Shown here one piece after another: positions 6,462-63,883 of a DNA stretch of 64,000 nt. Made by a program: the position numbers and the translations under genes. The notes below the pieces were generated by a model. It was not told the DNA's origin. It saw only the letters and a list, made by a program, of their open reading frames with translations, and made no database searches. The stretch is from a bacterium (GTDB taxonomy: Bacteria > Electryoneota > Electryoneia > Electryoneales > Electryoneaceae): the NCBI GenBank assembly GCA_963675295.2, contig CAXXKJ010000002.1, forward strand, positions 2,912,001 to 2,976,000, in the 5' to 3' direction. The first letter of the stretch is position 1, and every line of letters starts with the position of its first letter.

Positions 6462-6496
6462 CTCGTCTCTCGTCTCTAGGCTCTAGTCTCTCGTCC
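6462..6496. repeat. heptamer tandem array (CTCGTCT/CTAGTCT x5)
   Basis: CTCGTCT CTCGTCT CTAGGCT CTAGTCT CTCGTCC. Confidence 0.85.
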
Positions 6497-6594
6497 AGTG
6501 TGACGGAGATTGTGAATTGCTTGTTTCGGGTCCGCGTCCCATGTCTTCTGGCTGAGCATGAGCCGCGTTTCCAGACGCTTGTCTTTTGTTCTCT

Positions 6595-6672
6595 CAAGTC
6601 TCAAGTCTCACATCTCTAGTCTTTTATCTTTCGACTTCAGTTCGACTTTCGACTCTGTACTTCTTTTCGACT
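6595..6672. repeat. degenerate heptamer tandem array (CAAGTCT / TTCGACT types)
   Basis: CAAGTCT CAAGTCT CACATCT CTAGTCT TTTATCT TTCGACT .. TTCGACT TTCGACT CTGTACT .. TTCGACT, directly after the stop of the 6677-7084 gene. Confidence 0.85.
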
Positions 6673-10169: not shown

Positions 10170-10849
10170 CAGATCGCACTCTTTTCGTAGGCCTGGGACA
10201 GGTATCGCGCCACTTCGGCGGCTCGTTCACGGGGCATCGCGGCAAGGATTTTCGCCGCCTGCCGTTGCCGCATCGTGATCAGCAATCGTGCGGAGGTTTT
10301 GCTGCCGAGGCCGTTCAATACGGCGGCGGCCTCGACCGGACGCATGTTCTCGATGATCTTGGAAAGGCGCTTGGCGTTGGCCTGATCGACACTGTCAGCG
10401 TCCGCGCTCAGCATCGCCAGCAGGTTCGCGAGATCGTCCACCTTCTCCTCGGCTTCCGCGACCTGTGCCTGGGTCTGCTGGACGTCTTCACGTACCGGAT
10501 CGGTCTTCGCGGTGGCGACGCTGTCCATCATTTCGGTGATGGTTTGCGTGCCGCCTCCGTCAGCTGTCTGGATTTGTCCATCTTCGTCCAGCATCACTGC
10601 GCCGCTGTCACCTTCGGCGGGCAGCATCATTGGACCGCCGCCGGGGCGCGACTGCTGCAGTTGCGAGATGTCCTTCGTCAGGTCGATCGGGGCGCGTCGA
10701 GCAGCTTCTTCGAGTGAATCCGCGATCGCCAGCGAATCGAGCAGGCTGGTGTCGGTTTCTCCCTTCAGCATGAAGTAACTGCCGCCAAGTGTGATCGCAT
10801 ACCCGACAACCAACACAATGATCAGGATCAACAACTGTTTCTTGCTCAT
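10169..10849 (-). CDS. MotE/YlxF-family flagellar protein (MgtE-N-like domain)
   Basis: N-terminal TM; RLSKIIENMRPVEAAAVL...MRQRQAAKILAAMPRERAA; between fliJ and fliK. Confidence 0.85.
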   Translation of the reverse strand: MSKKQLLILIIVLVVGYAITLGGSYFMLKGETDTSLLDSLAIADSLEEAARRAPIDLTKDISQLQQSRPGGGPMMLPAEGDSGAVMLDEDGQIQTADGGGTQTITEMMDSVATAKTDPVREDVQQTQAQVAEAEEKVDDLANLLAMLSADADSVDQANAKRLSKIIENMRPVEAAAVLNGLGSKTSARLLITMRQRQAAKILAAMPRERAAEVARYLSQAYEKSAI

Positions 10850-11328
10850 GATCCGTATCCCGCACTAGGGTTCTGGCCGTTGGTTGACTCCGCGCGTGTC
10901 GCGGCACGTCCGCCGATGTCATCCAGTGTGGCCTGTTGTTCTTTCAGGGTGAGCTGCGTGTGTTCCGCGCGTTTCTTCTCTTTCAGCCGGTCGAGGACCT
11001 TGCGTTCACGCGTGGCATCCAGCAGCTCCTGCCGCCGTTGAGCGACCACCTTCTCCGCTTCCCGGCATTTCTCGATCTGAGTCCGCAGCCGTTTTTCCAG
11101 TTCGCGTTGCCAGCGGTGGTGCTGCATGGCGGTTCCGGCGGTAACCGTGCCGCCGAGCATGTTCCGTTGCTGCTTGACAAGTTGCGCGATTTCAGTTTGG
11201 ATCTGATTTTTCACCGTTTCCAGTTCTGTCAACGTCCGCTGCGCCTCACCGAGCTTGCGCTGGGCCTCGCGCTCGACCACCTCACGGGCGTCGAGGACTT
11301 TCTGCAGGCGGAAGTGGAAACGTTTCAT
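10846..11328 (-). CDS. fliJ: flagellar export protein FliJ
   Basis: MKRFHFRLQKVLD...ERKVLDRLKEK...EQ..LDD. Confidence 0.93.
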   Translation of the reverse strand: MKRFHFRLQKVLDAREVVEREAQRKLGEAQRTLTELETVKNQIQTEIAQLVKQQRNMLGGTVTAGTAMQHHRWQRELEKRLRTQIEKCREAEKVVAQRRQELLDATRERKVLDRLKEKKRAEHTQLTLKEQQATLDDIGGRAATRAESTNGQNPSAGYGS

Positions 11329-11335
11329 GACGGAC

Positions 11336-11370
11336 TCAGTTCTCAGTGATCAGTGGTCAGTGCTCAGTTA
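11336..11370. repeat. heptamer array TCAGTNN x5 (left arm of inverted pair)
   Basis: TCAGTTC TCAGTGA TCAGTGG TCAGTGC TCAGTTA. Confidence 0.95.
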
Positions 11371-11407
11371 AAACAACCGGAAATCTGTGATCGAGCACTT
11401 CAACCTG

Positions 11408-11767
11408 CTAACCTCTTTCTTTTACCTTTTGAATCAAACCAAAAATCGTTTTCGCGGTTTCTTCCGATTTAGGTTTAACTTTATCGTATGTAAGATCCGT
11501 CAGATAAGACAATCGTCTGGCCAGCGATAACTGATAATCCAGTTCTCGGACTGAACCGTATGCAATATGCAGAAAGTGTAGAAATTCTTTCGTTGTTGCT
11601 CTGGCACAACCCTCAACAATATTTGATGGTACGGAAACAGCCGCTCGTCGCATTTGATTTGTCAAGCCGAAGCGTTCCTCGTCCGGCATACTCAAGGTGG
11701 CCCGATAAACTTCAAGCGCCAGATCATCTGCAAGGTCAAAAGCTTTTAGATTCCTGTGATCCTGCAT
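11408..11767 (-). CDS. four helix bundle protein (23S rRNA IVP / TIGR02436 family, Avd-like)
   Basis: [40 protein letters not shown]....EF.HFL.IA.GS..EL.YQL signature; visibly AT-richer than its neighbours. Confidence 0.95.
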
Positions 11768-11801
11768 TTAGCATTCCTTTCCTGATCACCTGTATTTGCT
11801 T

Positions 11802-11843
11802 TCACTGACCACTGAGAACTGAGCACTGAAAACTGATAACTGT
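11802..11843. repeat. heptamer array NNACTGA x6 (right arm, reverse complement of 11336-11370)
   Basis: TCACTGA CCACTGA GAACTGA GCACTGA AAACTGA TAACTGT. Confidence 0.95.
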
Positions 11844-11849
11844 CTCGCG

Positions 11850-13205
11850 CTATTGCGCTAGATTGATCACGCTATCCCACGTCCCCTTCAACTCCGACCC
11901 TTCATTCATATCCTGGATCAGGAAATCTTCGATCGCCTGTCGTTTGTGGACAGCGCGGTCGATTCGCGGATTTGAACCTTGCTTATACGCTCCGATGTTG
12001 ATCAGGTCTTCATTTTCACGCCACACGGCCATGTCCGTCTGCACCAGTTTCGCCGCCTTTTTCAACTCATCCGGCACCACTTCGACCATCACACGGCTGA
12101 TACTGTTGAGCACGTCCACCGCCGGATAGTGGCCCTCGGTCGCCAATTTGCGGCTGAGCACGATGTGGCCGTCGAGGATTGAACGGACCGCGTCCGCGAC
12201 AGGCTCATTCATATCATCGCCTTCAACCAGCACGGTGTACAGCGCGGTGATCGAGCCTTTGTCGCCACGTCCGGCGCGTTCGAGCAATTTCGGCAGCATC
12301 GCGAACACGGACGGCGTGTAGCCGCGTGTCGTCGGCGGTTCCCCGACTGCGAGACCGATTTCACGTTGCGCCATCGCGAGACGAGTGACTGAATCCATCA
12401 TCAGCATCACATCTTTGCCCTGGTCACGGAAGTATTCCGCGATCGCGGTGGCAAGCATCGCGCCCTTGATCCGGATCAACGCCGGTTTGTCCGAGGTGAC
12501 AACCACCACGACAGATCGTGCCAACCCTTCCTGCCCGAGGTCGCGTTCGATGAAGTCACGGACCTCGCGTCCACGTTCCCCGACCAGCGCGATCACGTTC
12601 ACCTCGGCTTCGGTGTGGCGTGCGACCATGCCCATGGTGACGCTTTTCCCGACACCGGACCCGGCGAAGATGCCGAATCGCTGGCCTTTGCCGCAGGTCA
12701 ACAATCCGTCTATCGAACGAATGCCCAACGCGAGCGGTTCGGTGACTCGTTGCCGTTTCAGGGGATGCGGTGGATCCGCGGTAATCGGAACCCTGGTTTC
12801 GGTGTCGAGCGGTCCGAGGTCGTCCAACGCATTGCCCAACCCGTCCAGCACCCGTCCGAGCAGCCCCGGCCCGGCTTTGACGGTAAATGGCCGCCGCAGG
12901 GAACGCACGATCGACCCCGGCGCAATACCGCCGAGATCGCCCAACGGCATCAACAGCACGTGATGGTCACGGAACCCGACCACCTCGGCCAACCCCTGAC
13001 GCTGATTCTTTTTATCCAAAAGCTCACAGATTTCACCGACCGACGCTTCCGGCCCGGAGGATTCAATCACCAGCCCGACCACCCGCACAACACGTCCACG
13101 CGGCACGAGCGGCTGCGCGGCGTCCAGCAGCTCTTCATGGCCGCGAAACAGCTCTTCCGGTGCCGGCGGTTGCGCCAACGGTGCGAGGGTCGGTGAATCA
13201 GTCAT
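11850..13205 (-). CDS. fliI: flagellar export ATPase FliI
   Basis: GQRFGIFAGSGVGKS Walker A, ALVGERGREV, MMDSVTR, GEPPTTRGY. Confidence 0.97.
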   Translation of the reverse strand: MTDSPTLAPLAQPPAPEELFRGHEELLDAAQPLVPRGRVVRVVGLVIESSGPEASVGEICELLDKKNQRQGLAEVVGFRDHHVLLMPLGDLGGIAPGSIVRSLRRPFTVKAGPGLLGRVLDGLGNALDDLGPLDTETRVPITADPPHPLKRQRVTEPLALGIRSIDGLLTCGKGQRFGIFAGSGVGKSVTMGMVARHTEAEVNVIALVGERGREVRDFIERDLGQEGLARSVVVVVTSDKPALIRIKGAMLATAIAEYFRDQGKDVMLMMDSVTRLAMAQREIGLAVGEPPTTRGYTPSVFAMLPKLLERAGRGDKGSITALYTVLVEGDDMNEPVADAVRSILDGHIVLSRKLATEGHYPAVDVLNSISRVMVEVVPDELKKAAKLVQTDMAVWRENEDLINIGAYKQGSNPRIDRAVHKRQAIEDFLIQDMNEGSELKGTWDSVINLAQ

Positions 13206-18672: not shown

Positions 18673-18732
18673 GTCCTGAGTCCTGAGTCTTGAGTCCTGA
18701 GACTGAAAAACCTGGGATGTGAGATGTGAGAC
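18673..18732. repeat. heptamer arrays GTCCTGA x4 and GATGTGA x2
   Basis: GTCCTGA GTCCTGA GTCTTGA GTCCTGA ... GATGTGA GATGTGA. Confidence 0.85.
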
Positions 18733-41511: not shown

Positions 41512-41560
41512 ACAGTCGTCAGTGATCAGTGATCAGTGATCAGTACTCAGTACTCAGGAA
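41512..41560. repeat. solo heptamer array TCAGTNN x7
   Basis: ACAGTCG TCAGTGA TCAGTGA TCAGTGA TCAGTAC TCAGTAC TCAGGAA, 3 nt after the pntB stop. Confidence 0.92.
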
Positions 41561-41566
41561 AACCTC

Positions 41567-41599
41567 AAGCCCGGTGGCGAACATGCTGCCGGGCTTTTT
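41567..41599 (+). terminator. intrinsic terminator of the pnt operon
   Basis: AAGCCCGGTGGC-N6-GCTGCCGGGCTT followed by TTT. Confidence 0.8.
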
Positions 41600-56029: not shown

Positions 56030-57448
56030 ATGGTCATCGGAGAATTGACCCAGGAGACGGATGTCCTGGTCATTGGCGCAGGACCGGGCGGGTATGTCGC
56101 CGCGATCCGTGCCGCCGACCTCGGGCTGGACGTCACCCTGATAGAAGAGCGGGACAAACTCGGCGGCGTCTGCCTGATCGAGGGCTGCATCCCGTCGAAA
56201 ACCTTGATCCACGCCGTCGAACTGATGGAGGACGTCAAGGAAGCCGACAAGTTCGGCATCTCGCATGAGAACGTCAGCCTCGACATCGACAAGTTGCGTG
56301 CGTGGACACAATCCGTGGTCGACGACCTCACCAGCGGCGTGAAAACGTTGCTCGACAAGCGCGGCGTCGACGTGGTCAAGGGCCGAGCGGTCTTCACCAG
56401 CGACAACCGCGTCCACATCGAAGGCGCGGGCAATATTGACTTCAAGCATTGCATCATCGCGACCGGTTCACGGATCAACACCTTGCCGTCCGAGTATGAT
56501 TTGCCGTTGTGGGACTCGGAAACGGCGCTGAATCTGCCGAGTATTCCGGAACGTTTGCTGGTGGTCGGCGGTGGCTATATCGGCCTTGAGATGGGCACGG
56601 TGTATTCCGGCCTCGGCTCGAAGGTGACGATGGTCGAATTCGCCGAACGCCTGCTGCTCGGCGCCGATCCGGACCTCGTCAAGCCGGTGATCCGGCGTTC
56701 GGAACAGCGGTTCGAGAAGATTCTCACCGACTCGAAGGTGGTTAAGGTCGAAGAGCACAAAGGCGGCGGGTACGACGTCACCATCGAGCATCAGGGCAAG
56801 GAAACCGTCGAAACGTTCGACCAGGTGCTGGTCGCTATCGGCCGCAAGCCGAACACCGACAATCTCGGGCTGGAGAACACCGGCGTCGAGGTCAACGAAC
56901 GCGGCTTCATCACCGTCAACGATCAGAACCGCACGACGGTCGACCACATTTTCGCCATCGGAGATGTCTGCCGCGGGCCGGCATTGGCACACAAAGCCAG
57001 CCGTGAGGCTAAGGTCGTGGCCGAGGTGATCGCAAAGCACCCGAGCGCGTTCGACAATCGCGCGGTGCCGGCTGTAGTATTCACCAACCCGGAAATCGCG
57101 TGGACCGGTATCACCGAACGGGAAGCCAAGGACGAGGGCATCGAAGTCAATGTTGGCCGCTTCCCGTTGACCGCGCTGGGCCGTGCGAAGACCATCGGCG
57201 AGACTGACGGCTTCATCAAGATGATCAGTGATCCGGTAACAAACATCGTGCTCGGTGTCGGCATTGTCGGCCCGCACGCGTCCGAGCTGATCGCGGAAGG
57301 CACGCTTGCGATTGAGATGGGCGCGACGCTCGAGGATATCGCGGCGACGATCCATCCGCACCCGACGATCTCCGAATCGATCATGGAGGCGGCGGAAGTC
57401 GCGGCGGGCGATCCAGTACATATCCTGCCAAAGAAAAAGAAGAAGTAG
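56030..57448 (+). CDS. lpdA: dihydrolipoamide dehydrogenase E3
   Basis: GAGPGGY, GGVCLIEGCIPSK, HPHPTISE. Confidence 0.96.
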   Translation: MVIGELTQETDVLVIGAGPGGYVAAIRAADLGLDVTLIEERDKLGGVCLIEGCIPSKTLIHAVELMEDVKEADKFGISHENVSLDIDKLRAWTQSVVDDLTSGVKTLLDKRGVDVVKGRAVFTSDNRVHIEGAGNIDFKHCIIATGSRINTLPSEYDLPLWDSETALNLPSIPERLLVVGGGYIGLEMGTVYSGLGSKVTMVEFAERLLLGADPDLVKPVIRRSEQRFEKILTDSKVVKVEEHKGGGYDVTIEHQGKETVETFDQVLVAIGRKPNTDNLGLENTGVEVNERGFITVNDQNRTTVDHIFAIGDVCRGPALAHKASREAKVVAEVIAKHPSAFDNRAVPAVVFTNPEIAWTGITEREAKDEGIEVNVGRFPLTALGRAKTIGETDGFIKMISDPVTNIVLGVGIVGPHASELIAEGTLAIEMGATLEDIAATIHPHPTISESIMEAAEVAAGDPVHILPKKKKK

Positions 57449-57494
57449 GAAGTAATCAAGTACGAAGTAGAAAGAAGTACAAAGTCAAAAGTCA
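57442..57494. repeat. heptamer array (GAAGTAN/AAAGTCA), left arm of inverted pair
   Basis: GAAGTAG GAAGTAA . CAAGTAC GAAGTAG ... GAAGTAC AAAGTCA AAAGTCA. Confidence 0.8.
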
Positions 57495-57502
57495 GCACTT
57501 TT

Positions 57503-57546
57503 AAGGCTACGAAAAGTTGATCGTAGCCTTTTTATTTTATTTTCTT
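57503..57546 (+). terminator. intrinsic terminator enclosed by the inverted heptamer arrays
   Basis: AAGGCTACGA-N8-TCGTAGCCTT followed by TTTATTTTATTTT. Confidence 0.8.
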
Positions 57547-57603
57547 TCATAAAATCTTAGTAACCGTTTCATAGAAACATCAAGCTAATGTCCCCGCTTT
57601 CGG

Positions 57604-57645
57604 TTTTGTACTCTGTACTTTGTACTTTCGACTTTGTACTTTCTT
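57604..57645. repeat. heptamer array CTTTGTA-type, right arm (complementary to 57442-57494)
   Basis: TTTTGTA CTCTGTA CTTTGTA CTTTCGA CTTTGTA CTTTCTT. Confidence 0.88.
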
Positions 57646-61372: not shown

Positions 61373-63883
61373 TCAATAAACCGCTTCAACGGCTTTTGCC
61401 CGCCTGAGGTAGTACACCCCGAACGCCAGCAGGATCGCGAAGATGACCATGCTCATCGCGGCGGCGTAGCCGTAACGGTAGAGATTGAACGCGCTCTTGT
61501 AGACGAACGAGACCAGGATGTGCGTGTTGTCGCTGGGTTCGCCCGCATTCGACACCAGCCAGATCACGTTCAGGTTGTTGAAGGTCCACACGGTCCCGAG
61601 CACAATCGCCGGCGCCATCACCGGTTTCAGCAATGGCAGCGTGATCGTACGCAGCTTGGTCCACCAGCCCGCGCCATCGATTTCGGCGGCTTCGTACAGT
61701 TGGGTCGGAATCGATTGTAGCCCACCCAGCGCGACGACCATCATGAACGGGAATCCGAGCCAGACATTGGTCAGGATGACGGCGAGGAACGCTTCCGTCG
61801 GTGACCCGAGCCAGTTGACCGGATTCATGTGCAGGAACTTGGTGATGACGAGGTTGATCGCCCCGTATTCCTGGTTGAACATCCCGCGCCAGGTAAGCGC
61901 GGTGATGTACTGCGGCACCGCCCACGGCAGGATCAGCAACGTGCGGATAACCCCGCGTCCGGGCAGCACACGGTGCAGCAGCAGCGCGAGGAAGACACCG
62001 ATCGTAACGTGGAACACGATGTTGGAAACGGTCCAGATCACAGTCTTGCCAAATACCGACCAGAAGCCAGGTTCGGAGAAGACTTTCACGTAGTTCTGGA
62101 AGCCGATCACGTCCCACGAGAAGAAATTGCGCAGCCCCATGTTCGACAGGCTGAGGATCACGTTGTACGCAAATGGATAGACCACGGTGATGAAGATGAC
62201 GATGAACGCCGGCAGGATCATCAGGTAGATGAACGAGCGGCTGCGCAGGTCTTTCACCAGCGCGATCATCGGCTTGACCATGACGATGAACAACGCCAAT
62301 AGGCCGAGCATCGCGATCACCTGCAGCACCGGCACATAACCCGCAGGCTCGATGACATCGTTCATCTCACGGATCTTGCGTTCCGCCTCGGACTGCATCG
62401 TCGCGGCTGCTTCCTCGGGGGTGACGGTCCCGCCGAGCACGGCCTGGTAGCTGGGCCGCATCGCATCCCAGATCGCCCGCAGTTCCGGCACCACCGGCAT
62501 TGGCGTGCCAACCTCGATCTCGGACAGACTTCCACGCATGATCGGGTTGCCGGTGATAACCGGATCGTCACGCAGGCTAAGCCGTGACGGCATGATCCCG
62601 GTCCGCGCCGCCAGTTCACGTTGTTCCGGGGTGCTCATCAGGAAGGTGAGGAAGCGGTGTGTCGCGGCGAGTTTGTCCTCGGCGATGTTGACATTCAGCG
62701 AGAATCCGCGCGGGCTGACCAGCGGGGACGGCCACCGCTGCGTCTCCTCGATGTACGGTATCCGTGCGACACCAATGTCGATGCCATCCTCGATGTAGGT
62801 CGCCCACGACCAGTCACCGTTGATGATCATCGCCGCCTGCCCCTCCTTGAACAGGGTGTGGGCGACCTCGTAGTCGGCGTTCTGCGGGGTAATCTTGTAC
62901 TTGTCACGCAGATCCTGGACAAACTGCAGCGCGCGGACATTGGCCTCGGTGTCCAGCGTTGGACGGTACTGATCGTCCATCAGCTGTCCGCCGAATCCGG
63001 TGAAAAATGGGATGAAAAAGAACGGTTCGGTGAAATTCCAGACGAGGCCGAAGCGGTCGATCTTGGAATCGCCGTCGAAGTCGAGCGTGTTCGCCTGCCC
63101 GATCTCGATCATCTCGGCGATGGTTTGCGGTGGTTCGGGGACAAATTCCTTGTTGTAGACCAGCGTCAAGTGATTGCCGAAGCGGTCGGCGACCTGGTAC
63201 AGGTGATCGTCGTACCACACCAGCGCCTGCGAGTCGAGCTCCGCCAGTTCCTGTTCGGAGAAAATGTCCTCAAGCGGACGGATAATGCCCATGGTTGCGA
63301 ATGGTCCGACCTGGTCTGAGGGTCCGTGGATCAGTTCCGGCCCACGTCCGGCGAGCGCGCTGTTCTGGTAACCGCTGCGAAGTTCTTCTGTTTCACGGTA
63401 CAACGCGGTGATCTTGATGTCCGGGTTCTGCTCTTCGAAGCGCGCGACCTGTTCCTCGAGGACCACTCGCTCGGCGTAGTTCAGCTGGTGCCAGAGGGTA
63501 ACCTCGGTGCGATCATCCTCCTCGGCGCAGCCGGTGAAAAGACCAATGGACAGCAGCAGGATTACCGTGAGGATGATCCCGGACATGAATGTCCGGGGCA
63601 CGACAGACATGGGGACACTTACTCCGACAGACACGGGGACACTTACTCCGACAGACACGGGGACACTTACTCTGTCAGACATGGGGACACTTACTCCGTT
63701 AAGTGTCCCCATGTCTGTCACGGACGTATTCACATCTTTCGGGGACACTTTGGGGACAAAGTGTCCCCTTTCCGTTGACCAGTCGGATGATCCCGACTTG
63801 CGAGCAAGTCGGGGCACACGCATGTCGTTTGGGGACACTTTAGGGACAAAGTGTCCCCTTTTGCGGCGAGATCGCCCTCTCAT
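61373..63883 (-). CDS. fused sugar-binding lipoprotein (MalE-like) + permease (MalF-like) with repeat-derived N-terminal extension
   Basis: lipobox LFTGC; SBP motifs (AAMIINGDW); permease with LQSIP..LYEAAEIDGA; ATG 63883 has GGAGGT and an ATGA overlap; alternative start at 63586. Confidence 0.88.
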   Translation of the reverse strand: MRGRSRRKRGHFVPKVSPNDMRVPRLARKSGSSDWSTERGHFVPKVSPKDVNTSVTDMGTLNGVSVPMSDRVSVPVSVGVSVPVSVGVSVPMSVVPRTFMSGIILTVILLLSIGLFTGCAEEDDRTEVTLWHQLNYAERVVLEEQVARFEEQNPDIKITALYRETEELRSGYQNSALAGRGPELIHGPSDQVGPFATMGIIRPLEDIFSEQELAELDSQALVWYDDHLYQVADRFGNHLTLVYNKEFVPEPPQTIAEMIEIGQANTLDFDGDSKIDRFGLVWNFTEPFFFIPFFTGFGGQLMDDQYRPTLDTEANVRALQFVQDLRDKYKITPQNADYEVAHTLFKEGQAAMIINGDWSWATYIEDGIDIGVARIPYIEETQRWPSPLVSPRGFSLNVNIAEDKLAATHRFLTFLMSTPEQRELAARTGIMPSRLSLRDDPVITGNPIMRGSLSEIEVGTPMPVVPELRAIWDAMRPSYQAVLGGTVTPEEAAATMQSEAERKIREMNDVIEPAGYVPVLQVIAMLGLLALFIVMVKPMIALVKDLRSRSFIYLMILPAFIVIFITVVYPFAYNVILSLSNMGLRNFFSWDVIGFQNYVKVFSEPGFWSVFGKTVIWTVSNIVFHVTIGVFLALLLHRVLPGRGVIRTLLILPWAVPQYITALTWRGMFNQEYGAINLVITKFLHMNPVNWLGSPTEAFLAVILTNVWLGFPFMMVVALGGLQSIPTQLYEAAEIDGAGWWTKLRTITLPLLKPVMAPAIVLGTVWTFNNLNVIWLVSNAGEPSDNTHILVSFVYKSAFNLYRYGYAAAMSMVIFAILLAFGVYYLRRAKAVEAVY
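63578..63858. repeat. cluster of palindromic repeats: 4 x 24-bp tandem units plus inverted copy, two GGGGACACTTT/AAAGTGTCCCC hairpins, two REP-like hairpins
   Basis: CGACAGACAYGGGGACACTTACTC x4 (63601-63696), inverted copy 63701-63720, hairpins at 63741-63768, 63831-63858, 63578-63597 and 63792-63813. Confidence 0.95.

Follow-up and report, generated by a model that had tools for sequence, protein, structure and literature searches.

A gene for a four-helix-bundle protein of 119 residues lies between the flagellar genes fliI and fliJ of an Electryoneaceae bacterium, enclosed by two tandem arrays of 7-nt units (heptamers) that are complementary to each other. The DNA studied is a stretch of 64,000 nt, called here the window (assembly GCA_963675295.2, contig CAXXKJ010000002.1, positions 2,912,001-2,976,000 of the forward strand; the genome is referred to as G000). 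The gene belongs to the TIGR02436/PF05635 family (23S_rRNA_IVP), and the package that it forms with its inverted heptamer arms, hereafter the cassette, is a recurrent design across phyla.

The reading favoured here, which we hold at about even confidence, is that of a resident cassette of the type of the intervening sequences (IVS) of 23S rRNA: the transcript would form a stem that loops out the gene, RNase III would cut this stem, and the host cistrons would be kept functionally adjacent.

Gene and arms in other genomes

The G000 genome (4.81 Mb) has six TIGR02436 genes, and all six are bracketed by inverted tandem heptamers and flanked by protein-coding genes. Their units are AAAAGAY-type, TCAGTNN, TCTATGG, GTRTGAG (in two cassettes) and GGGCTCA, and 27-50 of 30-57 positions are Watson-Crick pairs on the best ungapped diagonals of the arms. 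The three congeners (G001, G002 and G003) have 13 genes of this family, all with heptamer arrays on both sides; 12 of these genes have arms that are at least 81% complementary over 18 nt or more, and the exception (L123) matches at 20/26. In these four genomes the heptamer unit is different at each junction, and the junctions occupied in the genus, which include rpsO, uvrB-like/purD and xth-like, are formed by unrelated host genes.

At the xth-like junction of G003 (L126/L128), the alignment of the gene to the family model is split into two segments (model positions 3-45 and 59-108), suggestive of a frameshift or of decay. The arms are present there.

A cross-phylum sample consisted of the best 80 loci of 596 confirmed stretches from many phyla, with 85 family genes, 81 of which have full flanks. 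The search was strict, since it required a period-7 signal of at least 15/21 on both sides together with an inverted match of at least 18/21. Both were found for 33 of the 81 genes, compared to 1 of 521 positions shifted by 1.2-3 kb within the same loci and to 1 of 154 neighbouring ORFs of 80-220 codons (the latter from crude gene calls). The inverted match alone (at least 18/21) was found for 46 of the 81 genes and for 4 of the 521 shifted positions. The gap between genes and controls is thus wide. The original prediction, made on the fliI-fliJ locus, had set beforehand that homologous genes should carry inverted arrays, and they do so in 6/6 cases in G000, 13/13 in its congeners and 33/81 in the survey.

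The cassettes of different genomes also share their position relative to the upstream gene. In 50 of 55 cassettes, the start of the 5' array lies close to the end of a sense frame of 80 codons or more (frame end at -19 to +17 nt from the array start, median -1), in a search that allowed -20 to +60; these frames are unverified as genes, and a frame that enters the array is ended by the array's own stops. Co-orientation with the upstream neighbour is seen in 69 of 86 cassettes, compared to 250 of 374 adjacent gene pairs in the background (crude gene calls). The arms have a median of 5.0 units on both sides, with a range of 3-94, and in 38 of 55 cassettes the shorter one is 4-5 units long; the lower limit of these counts is fixed by the detection threshold. 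A motif made of an A-run and a T-run just inside the arms, seen in most cassettes of the genus, was rejected as a general feature: it occurs in 23/55 (A-run) and 12/55 (T-run) cassettes overall, and the borders of the arrays are fuzzy.

Intergenic heptamer arrays abound in this lineage, and the gene could be near them by chance. Seven is the commonest period reported by Tandem Repeats Finder (TRF) in G000 (630 of 2728 rows); after merging, these rows give 478 arrays, among which 123 distinct units occur. Most of these arrays are solo; 23 have a reverse-complement partner (at least 21/24) within 1.5 kb, compared to 4 in a reverse control and 4 in a complement control. In the genome 14 of 278 adjacent array pairs are complementary, whereas six of six four-helix-bundle genes are bracketed. 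No array is present in the 100-kb sample of G002, yet both its cassettes are armed, and the design also occurs in array-poor phyla. Together with the survey, these controls already contradict a chance neighbourhood, which is hardly credible.

The relation between the family and the heptamer arrays at large is less clear. In 17 related genomes, sampled over 100 kb each, the number of four-helix-bundle genes and the density of heptamer arrays are weakly related (Spearman 0.33, p 0.20). The genomes without the gene have 0, 1, 2, 0, 2 and 3 arrays per 100 kb, and those with at least one gene have 1, 5, 0, 3, 8, 9, 7, 1, 2, 1 and 3; the genomes with 15, 8 and 6 genes have 3, 1 and 1. The family goes with its own arms, but these data give no clear support to the idea that it drives the arrays genome-wide.

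The cassette between fliI and fliJ

In the window, the cassette spans 508 nt (11336-11843) in an operon of the order fliF-fliG-fliH-fliI-cassette ORF-fliJ-gene of an MgtE_N protein-fliK. Its GC content is 0.42-0.46, compared to 0.61-0.64 in the flanks. The positions of its parts are given in Table 1.

Table 1. Parts of the cassette and adjoining host genes, in the order of transcription (window coordinates)
Feature	Position	Strand	Basis or remark
fliI (flagellar export ATPase), upstream host gene	11850..13205	-	TIGR03497, 648 bits (cut-off 629.8); ORF list
fliI stop codon TAG	11852-11850	-	followed by CGCGAG (6 nt) before the 5' arm
5' arm, six tandem heptamers ACAGTTA TCAGTTT TCAGTGC TCAGTTC TCAGTGG TCAGTGA	11802..11843	-	sequence, TRF, inverted repeats I1-I5, fold
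Inner GTGATC, complement of GATCAC at 11387-11392, lengthens the stem inward	11784..11789	-	sequence; paired in the minimum free energy (MFE) fold
AAGGA, Shine-Dalgarno-like ribosome-binding site of the cassette ORF	11775..11779	-	sequence
119-aa four-helix-bundle ORF (TIGR02436/PF05635, 23S_rRNA_IVP), 360 nt	11408..11767	-	ATG at 11767; profile scores
Inner GATCAC, partner of GTGATC	11387..11392	-	sequence; fold
3' arm, five tandem heptamers TAACTGA GCACTGA CCACTGA TCACTGA GAACTGA	11336..11370	-	sequence, TRF, inverted repeats, fold
fliJ, downstream host gene, ATG at 11328	10846..11328	-	TIGR02473, 65.8 bits (cut-off 50.45)

TRF places the period-7 arrays at 11335-11368 and 11803-11842, and the best inverted repeat (I1) covers 41 nt that are 83% complementary, with 419 nt between the arms. 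The arms are paired in both the MFE and the centroid RNA folds of 11320-11860 (minus strand), with a z of -3.87 and 0 of 100 shuffles as stable. In the fold, the base of the stem is 5-6 nt past the fliI stop and 4-7 nt ahead of the fliJ ATG, from which the 3' arm is separated by GTCCGTC (7 nt). The only GAG upstream of this ATG is supplied by the last unit of the 3' arm. The unit variants TTA, TGC, TTC, TGG and TGA are common to both arms, in an order that is not mirrored, and the five constant positions of each heptamer allow the arms to pair in several registers.

The MFE fold also has a small GCGC-AAUA-GCGC hairpin at window 11852-11863, just before the long stem, with the fliI stop codon in and beside its loop.

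The original prediction had described most of this anatomy: an AT-rich ORF separating fliI from fliJ, six heptamers beginning 6 nt past the fliI stop, five complementary ones ending 7 nt ahead of the fliJ start, an inner GUGAUC/GAUCAC pair lengthening the stem, and arms able to form a duplex around the ORF. The sequence and the folds agree with it on each of these points. It had also stated that no reverse transcriptase (RT) or transposase gene is adjacent, and indeed no RT, transposase or recombinase gene is found in the flagellar operon around the cassette. There is no promoter-like or terminator-like site on the minus strand between 10800 and 12300, and PADLOC returned no match. Among the sequencing data, DNA contigs do not bridge the cassette; in a second sample (X4, depth 2-7), 11388-11723 is uncovered and the contigs end within the arms, as repeats would lead one to expect, and no weight is given to this.

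The ORF product scores 117.3 bits against TIGR02436 (cut-off 24; model positions 4-109 of 109) and 119.1 bits against PF05635 (cut-off 33.8; positions 1-105 of 106). Its closest solved relative is PDB 2gsc (E 5.8e-22), whose molecule name is XCC0516 and which we take to come from Xanthomonas campestris. The entries 2gsc and 2rld have five chains each, in keeping with the pentamers that had been claimed for characterised relatives. The relationship to Avd, the accessory protein of diversity-generating retroelements (DGR), is distant (PHROG 3206, E 4.3e-6; NF033474, E 2.8e-4, 21.1 bits for a cut-off of 80); with the family scores, the PHROG match supports the assignment to the IVS/Avd superfamily that had been proposed. 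No RT gene is adjacent and the score against the Avd equivalog model is below its cut-off; the protein is therefore not a DGR component. According to passages of a DGR preprint, Avd is a pentameric four-helix-bundle barrel, like S23 proteins, and works with RNA (bioRxiv 2023.10.23.563531). In passages of a preprint on rRNA insertions of the candidate phyla radiation (CPR), 23S_rRNA_IVP is called functionally uncharacterised.

Insertion and inheritance

The fliI locus was compared in 29 relatives, and fliJ was found downstream of fliI in 28 of them. A four-helix-bundle gene separates the two genes in one relative, G001, which is also the closest (FliI and FliJ are 94% and 88% identical). In the congeners G002 and G003, the fliI stop overlaps the fliJ start (ATGA), in AAATGAAG and TTCATGAAA, respectively, and 26 of the 28 relatives have no large insert at this place, many of them with overlapping genes. 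These loci are most simply explained by a single insertion in the ancestor shared by G000 and G001; it would have broken a translationally coupled pair. The absence of the gene from the locus in relatives had been anticipated, and it takes the form of empty sites in G002 and G003.

The cassette proteins of the genus cluster by junction, not by genome. The proteins at the rpsO junction are 92% identical; those at the purD junction are 93% (G000/G001) and 83% (G002/G003) identical, and 61-63% identical between these two pairs; those at the xth-like junction are 92% and 81-82% identical. This clustering and the 45-62% identity of the paralogues within G000 indicate that the cassettes are old residents inherited with their junctions and not recent copies. 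The dN/dS ratios of three G000/G001 orthologue pairs, taken from other cassettes of the genus, are 0.133, 0.025 and 0.025; these sister cassettes are under strong purifying selection.

The history of some junctions is less simple. The xth-like junction of G002 (L119) has a cassette of a different lineage, with 57% protein identity and unrelated arms (TCGTCTC/GAGACGA, compared to GGGCTCA/GAGCCCA in G000). At fliI-fliJ, the cassettes of G000 and G001 are 73% identical in protein and 66% in nucleotides, the flanking fliI and fliJ being 86% and 88.5% identical in nucleotides; dS has reached saturation. Both cases point to occasional replacement of cassettes. In G028, which belongs to a different family of the phylum, fliI and fliJ are separated by an insert of about 670 nt (L028:590-1290), bounded by inverted heptamers CAAGTTN/AACTTGN and rich in short hairpins. 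It has no four-helix-bundle remnant detectable by tblastn or profile search, and it is independent of, and unrelated to, the G000 cassette.

The arms could also be a device of the host, in which an intercistronic stem, acting as a stabiliser or processing site of the type of repetitive extragenic palindromic (REP) sequences and bacterial interspersed mosaic elements (BIME), sets the fliI:fliJ ratio or the stability of the mRNA, the gene being a passenger. The stem base lies close to both host genes and the GAG ahead of fliJ belongs to the 3' arm; therefore, the opening of the stem by a ribosome terminating on fliI could couple the translation of fliJ to that of fliI. Arrays generally abut upstream stop codons, and the 478 merged arrays of G000 illustrate how common they are at gene ends. 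However, the 26 relatives mentioned above do without a large insert, the package of gene and arms is also found at unrelated junctions (rpsO, purD, xth-like and others), and the enclosed gene is under strong purifying selection, unlike a passenger. A host device is thus an unlikely explanation of the cassette.

Co-variation of the arms

The core of every fliI-fliJ unit is TCAGT/ACTGA in G000 and TCGGT/ACCGA in G001, a one-base difference that is matched on both arms. In the fold of the orthologous G001 cassette, the arms are again paired with each other (z -4.22, 0 of 100 shuffles as stable). At the uvrB-like/purD junction, the units of four species are GGTRTGA/TCAYACC, GTKRTGA/TCAYMAC and GCTRTGA/TCACAGC. 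In a comparison of 52 cassettes whose arms are 21 nt or longer, the best 3' match of a 5' arm is its own partner in 45 cases, and the average identity is 0.91 for own partners and 0.54 for non-partners; 36 of these cassettes come from the survey, where they were picked for complementarity, and the informative part is the mismatch of non-partners. The arms of homologues had been expected to co-vary, and they do so in these three comparisons. Co-variation could be kept by processes in DNA: slippage in tandem arrays is an established mutational mechanism, and so is template switching from one arm of a quasi-palindrome to the other.

A protein that recognises the arrays might account for their number of units, if each subunit of a homopentamer bound one heptamer and the array were its binding register, an idea that goes back to the original prediction. 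The median arm of 5.0 units, the shorter arms of 4-5 units in 38 of 55 cassettes, the five chains of 2gsc and 2rld, and the pentameric barrel with which Avd works with RNA agree with such a match in number. The heptamers, however, are wholly different between cassettes while the protein motifs are conserved, the low unit count is set by the detection threshold and its upper end is 94, and gene count and array density are weakly related. This makes a binding register quite improbable.

A stem in RNA or an element in DNA

According to the favoured reading, the cassette, having no promoter-like or terminator-like site of its own, would be read within the fliF-G-H-I-cassette-J transcript. The arms of this transcript would pair as an imperfect stem of some 40 bp, with several registers possible, which would loop out the 360-nt ORF and place the fliI and fliJ cistrons again side by side. 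By analogy with ORF-bearing 23S rRNA IVS, the stem would be a substrate of the host RNase III, the gene of which is encoded by G000 (250.7 bits); cleavage would then release the mRNA of the four-helix-bundle protein and leave fliI and fliJ on separate, unjoined messages. The stem base beside the fliJ start may be opened by ribosomes that terminate on fliI, and coupling would be regained in another form than the ATGA overlap. The complementarity of the arms would be kept by concerted evolution, in which units are gained and lost by slippage and the arms are matched by copying from one to the other or by selection.

Several features of the arms fit a logic at the level of RNA or translation. Read inward, the arms are rich in G and poor in C in 39 of 43 cassettes, with 543 G and 157 C in the 5' arms. 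Inward G-richness is equal on both strands of an inverted repeat; therefore, the G-rich arm is transcribed first and the C-rich arm second, in either direction. The C-rich arm, if single-stranded, would resemble a loading site for Rho. Stop triplets in the arms number 284 inward and 129 outward, a difference that is confounded with G-richness, and the enrichment in stops is a hint only: since units are not independent, mononucleotide shuffles are exceeded in both arms. Of 43 cassettes, 22 have a 5' arm with stops in all three frames; the fliI-fliJ cassette is an exception, its 5' arm closing one frame and its 3' arm three. The inward G-richness and the stop triplets, the array at the upstream stop and the stem base near fliJ all fit this logic.

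The cassette at the xth-like junction of G002 (L119) has a C-rich 5' arm, the reverse of the usual polarity.

The mismatches of the arms do not carry the mark of selection on a sense RNA. This was examined on the ungapped diagonals of 43 arm pairs (36 from the survey, 6 from G000 and 1 from G001), which were used after RNAduplex runs on whole flanks of 200 nt had paired more than 100 nt everywhere and left the strands inseparable. The 43 pairs have 1322 Watson-Crick pairs, 35 G·U, 38 A·C and 89 other mismatches, and there is no excess of G·U, which outnumbers A·C in 17 loci and is outnumbered in 17. Because the two kinds of mismatch are equal, the complementarity of the arms may be maintained at the level of DNA. 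As to the earlier proposal that the cassette is hidden from the operon by RNA pairing, the discrete inserted cassette is supported by the empty sites in the congeners, and the test for sense-RNA pairing is negative (35 G·U and 38 A·C). Its further suggestion that the insert might be spliced is without support; the excision of known IVS leaves the RNA in pieces, according to passages of PMC4990558.

The inverted arrays of G000 that enclose no such gene also bear on this question. TCAGTNN arrays, of the unit of the fliI-fliJ cassette, occur at 25 or more other sites of G000, most of them without a four-helix-bundle gene. One inverted TCAGTNN pair without a gene (C2:4129578-4129712) has 63 nt between its arms and shares 26 identical bases with the 5' arm of the cassette. 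In the window, another gene-less pair occupies 57449-57643: units of the AAGTACN type follow directly the stop of a gene ending at 57448, and units of the TTTGTAC type stop just short of the next gene. These arms enclose a terminator-like hairpin and its T-run (57503-57530). The arms of gene-less pairs that enclose terminators are probably on different transcripts, and pairing in cis on one RNA would therefore not be the general cause of complementarity.

Together with the G·U count, this argues against the stem-and-cleavage reading, as do four other points. The arms differ by at least two units in 21 of 55 cassettes and reach 94 units. The unit family of the fliI-fliJ arms is frequent elsewhere in G000. 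Rfam, searched in E-value mode over 10800-12300, gives no match. Lastly, the orthologous fliI-fliJ cassettes are far more diverged than their flanks, and the compensated change of the core may therefore reflect the replacement of a whole cassette and not a change in place.

The main rival is a role of the arms in DNA, which is possible, though on the unlikely side. The arrays would be hairpin or cruciform ends, or substrates of recombination, for the insertion, replacement or maintenance of the cassette; complementarity would be kept by intramolecular template switching at replication, RNA pairing would be a by-product, and the protein would be an accessory that binds nucleic acid. This would agree with the presence or absence of the cassette, with a clean empty site, in congeners, with the different cassette lineage at the xth-like junction of G002 and with a second, unrelated heptamer-armed insert without the gene at fliI-fliJ in G028. 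It would also agree with the lack of a G·U excess over A·C, with gene-less arm pairs that span terminators, with the 26 bases shared by the cassette arm and the gene-less pair at C2:4129578-4129712, and with an inward G-richness (39 of 43 cassettes) that is equal on both DNA strands. However, no transposase, recombinase or RT gene is found in the operon, and the G000 paralogues, 45-62% identical and clustering by junction, give no sign of recent copying. The arm sequences differ between cassettes and so offer no common end sequence that a protein could recognise. A target-site duplication is not readable, since the C-terminus of the host protein and the junction differ between filled and empty sites.

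A more ambitious form of the stem-and-cleavage reading would see in these cassettes a widespread, transposase-free class of self-insulating intervening genes, whose arms close the reading frames, whose C-rich, Rho-attracting arm is paired early, whose insert is removed by RNase III and whose pentamer acts on the arms. A period of 7 has no common factor with 3, and one stop triplet per unit would close all three frames; the C-rich second arm would be paired as soon as it is made, and the insert would end upstream translation at its border and avoid polarity. If this were true, the four-helix-bundle family would account for some of the so far unexplained surplus of 7-base repeats that bacterial genomes show. 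Inward G-richness, the surplus of inward stop triplets and the position of the 5' arrays at upstream stops are hints in favour of this class. The weak link between gene count and array density and the lack of a G·U excess speak against this class, which we consider doubtful.

Relation to known intervening sequences and repeats

The nearest known system is the IVS of 23S rRNA. Passages of PMC4990558 describe, in helix 45 of the 23S rRNA of Coxiella burnetii, an IVS of 428 nt with an ORF of this family and, upstream of the ORF, three tandem heptamers GACAGAT, whose number varies by strain; the 5' cut is at the start of the first repeat. Other IVS are cited there in Leptospira, Salmonella and others. 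As far as these passages go, the IVS and the cassette have in common a stem of terminal complementary sequences whose loop holds an ORF of this family, a similar size (428 and 508 nt), tandem heptamers on the 5' side, strain-variable in copy number in Coxiella, and a presumed horizontal acquisition followed by vertical maintenance. RNase III is present in the host, being encoded by G000.

The two differ in other respects. The cassette lies between protein-coding flagellar genes and not in an rRNA helix, both its arms consist wholly of heptamer arrays, and its sister cassettes are under purifying selection, whereas ORF decay is described in Coxiella. The long enclosing stem of an IVS is present (41 nt, 83%, and likewise in G001), and the location in rRNA is lacking. 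The cassette thus resembles the ORF-bearing rRNA IVS but fails their first defining feature, the rRNA location.

Cyanobacterial short tandemly repeated repetitive (STRR) sequences are dispersed intergenic heptamer repeats. Intergenic heptamers are also known from other bacteria. Passages of PMC4692102, in which the STRR repeats are cited, report about 186 GGGAATC heptamer arrays in Xanthomonas, of which 70-75 are in convergent pairs, conserved in position and variable in length between species; in passages of PMC2700814, heptanucleotide sites of Geobacter metallireducens are listed as putative regulatory elements. With these the cassette arms share, as described there, intergenic tandem 7-mers, often as two close arrays on opposite strands, and a position conserved in related species with a variable length and without a known function. 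By their period-7 arrays on both sides, the 478 arrays of the genome and the complementarity of own partners, the arms belong to this class. The cassette differs in that its pair of arrays encloses a gene, and the G000 unit varies by junction, with 123 units among the 478 arrays.

The terms "four helix", "S23" and "xcc0516" are absent from the main text of PMC4692102, where the repeats are not tied to PF05635 genes, and the heptanucleotide passages of PMC2700814 make no mention of such a gene. No link between this gene family, outside rRNA, and inverted heptamer arrays was found in the literature covered, which did not extend to the supplements of these two papers. Heptamer arrays and rRNA IVS themselves are already in print.

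Two other systems come less close. With Avd the cassette protein shares a distant homology and the pentameric four-helix-bundle barrel that the DGR preprint, in the passages cited above, describes for Avd. It differs by its score against NF033474 (21.1 bits for a cut-off of 80) and by the lack of an RT gene nearby; moreover, its residue count suggests a nearly neutral protein, not a strongly basic one. Like REP, BIME and miniature inverted-repeat transposable elements (MITE), the cassettes have inverted repeats between the genes of an operon, and gene-less versions share arm sequence with a cassette. Unlike them, the operon has no transposase gene, nor one for a REP-associated tyrosine transposase (RAYT), the search for which was confined to the operon; the arms are tandem arrays with locus-specific units and not one conserved end sequence; and the gene-bearing copies are old and divergent (45-62% identity). 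With no transposase nearby, arm units that differ and paralogues 45-62% identical, the cassette does not qualify as a transposable element of the insertion sequence (IS) or MITE kind.

Three loose ends meet in this cassette: a very widespread protein family of solved structure and unassigned function, the origin and logic of rRNA IVS, and the excess of 7-base repeats. If the arms work as proposed, they would offer a general way for a gene to reside in essential operons and leave them undisturbed, here where it splits the coupled pair fliI-fliJ. The conserved design of gene plus arms is also a handle on the role of the protein.

Other repeats of the genome and the window

Inverted pairs of the GAGTNNT type in G000 enclose non-coding spacers or whole unrelated genes (C2:973027-973336, 1093335-1094338, 3927029-3927628 and 3949704-3949881), and a recurring hairpin, CCACGGAC...GTCCGTGG, is found just inside their G-rich arm. 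In the window, the TCAGTGA/TCAGTAC array at 41519-41557, a solo one whose units belong to the family of those in the cassette arms, lies directly past the stop of a gene and is followed by a terminator-like hairpin (41567-41596). Other intergenic period-7 arrays of the window, at 6462-6495, 6592-6622 and 18673-18731, have the units CTCGTCT, TCTCAAG, GTCCTGA and GATGTGA, and the first two arrays are not mutually complementary. A tandem repeat of 24 nt (4.1 copies, 93% matches) at 63601-63698 contains the motif GGGGACAC, which is also found in the intergenic stretch C2:1094200-1094300.

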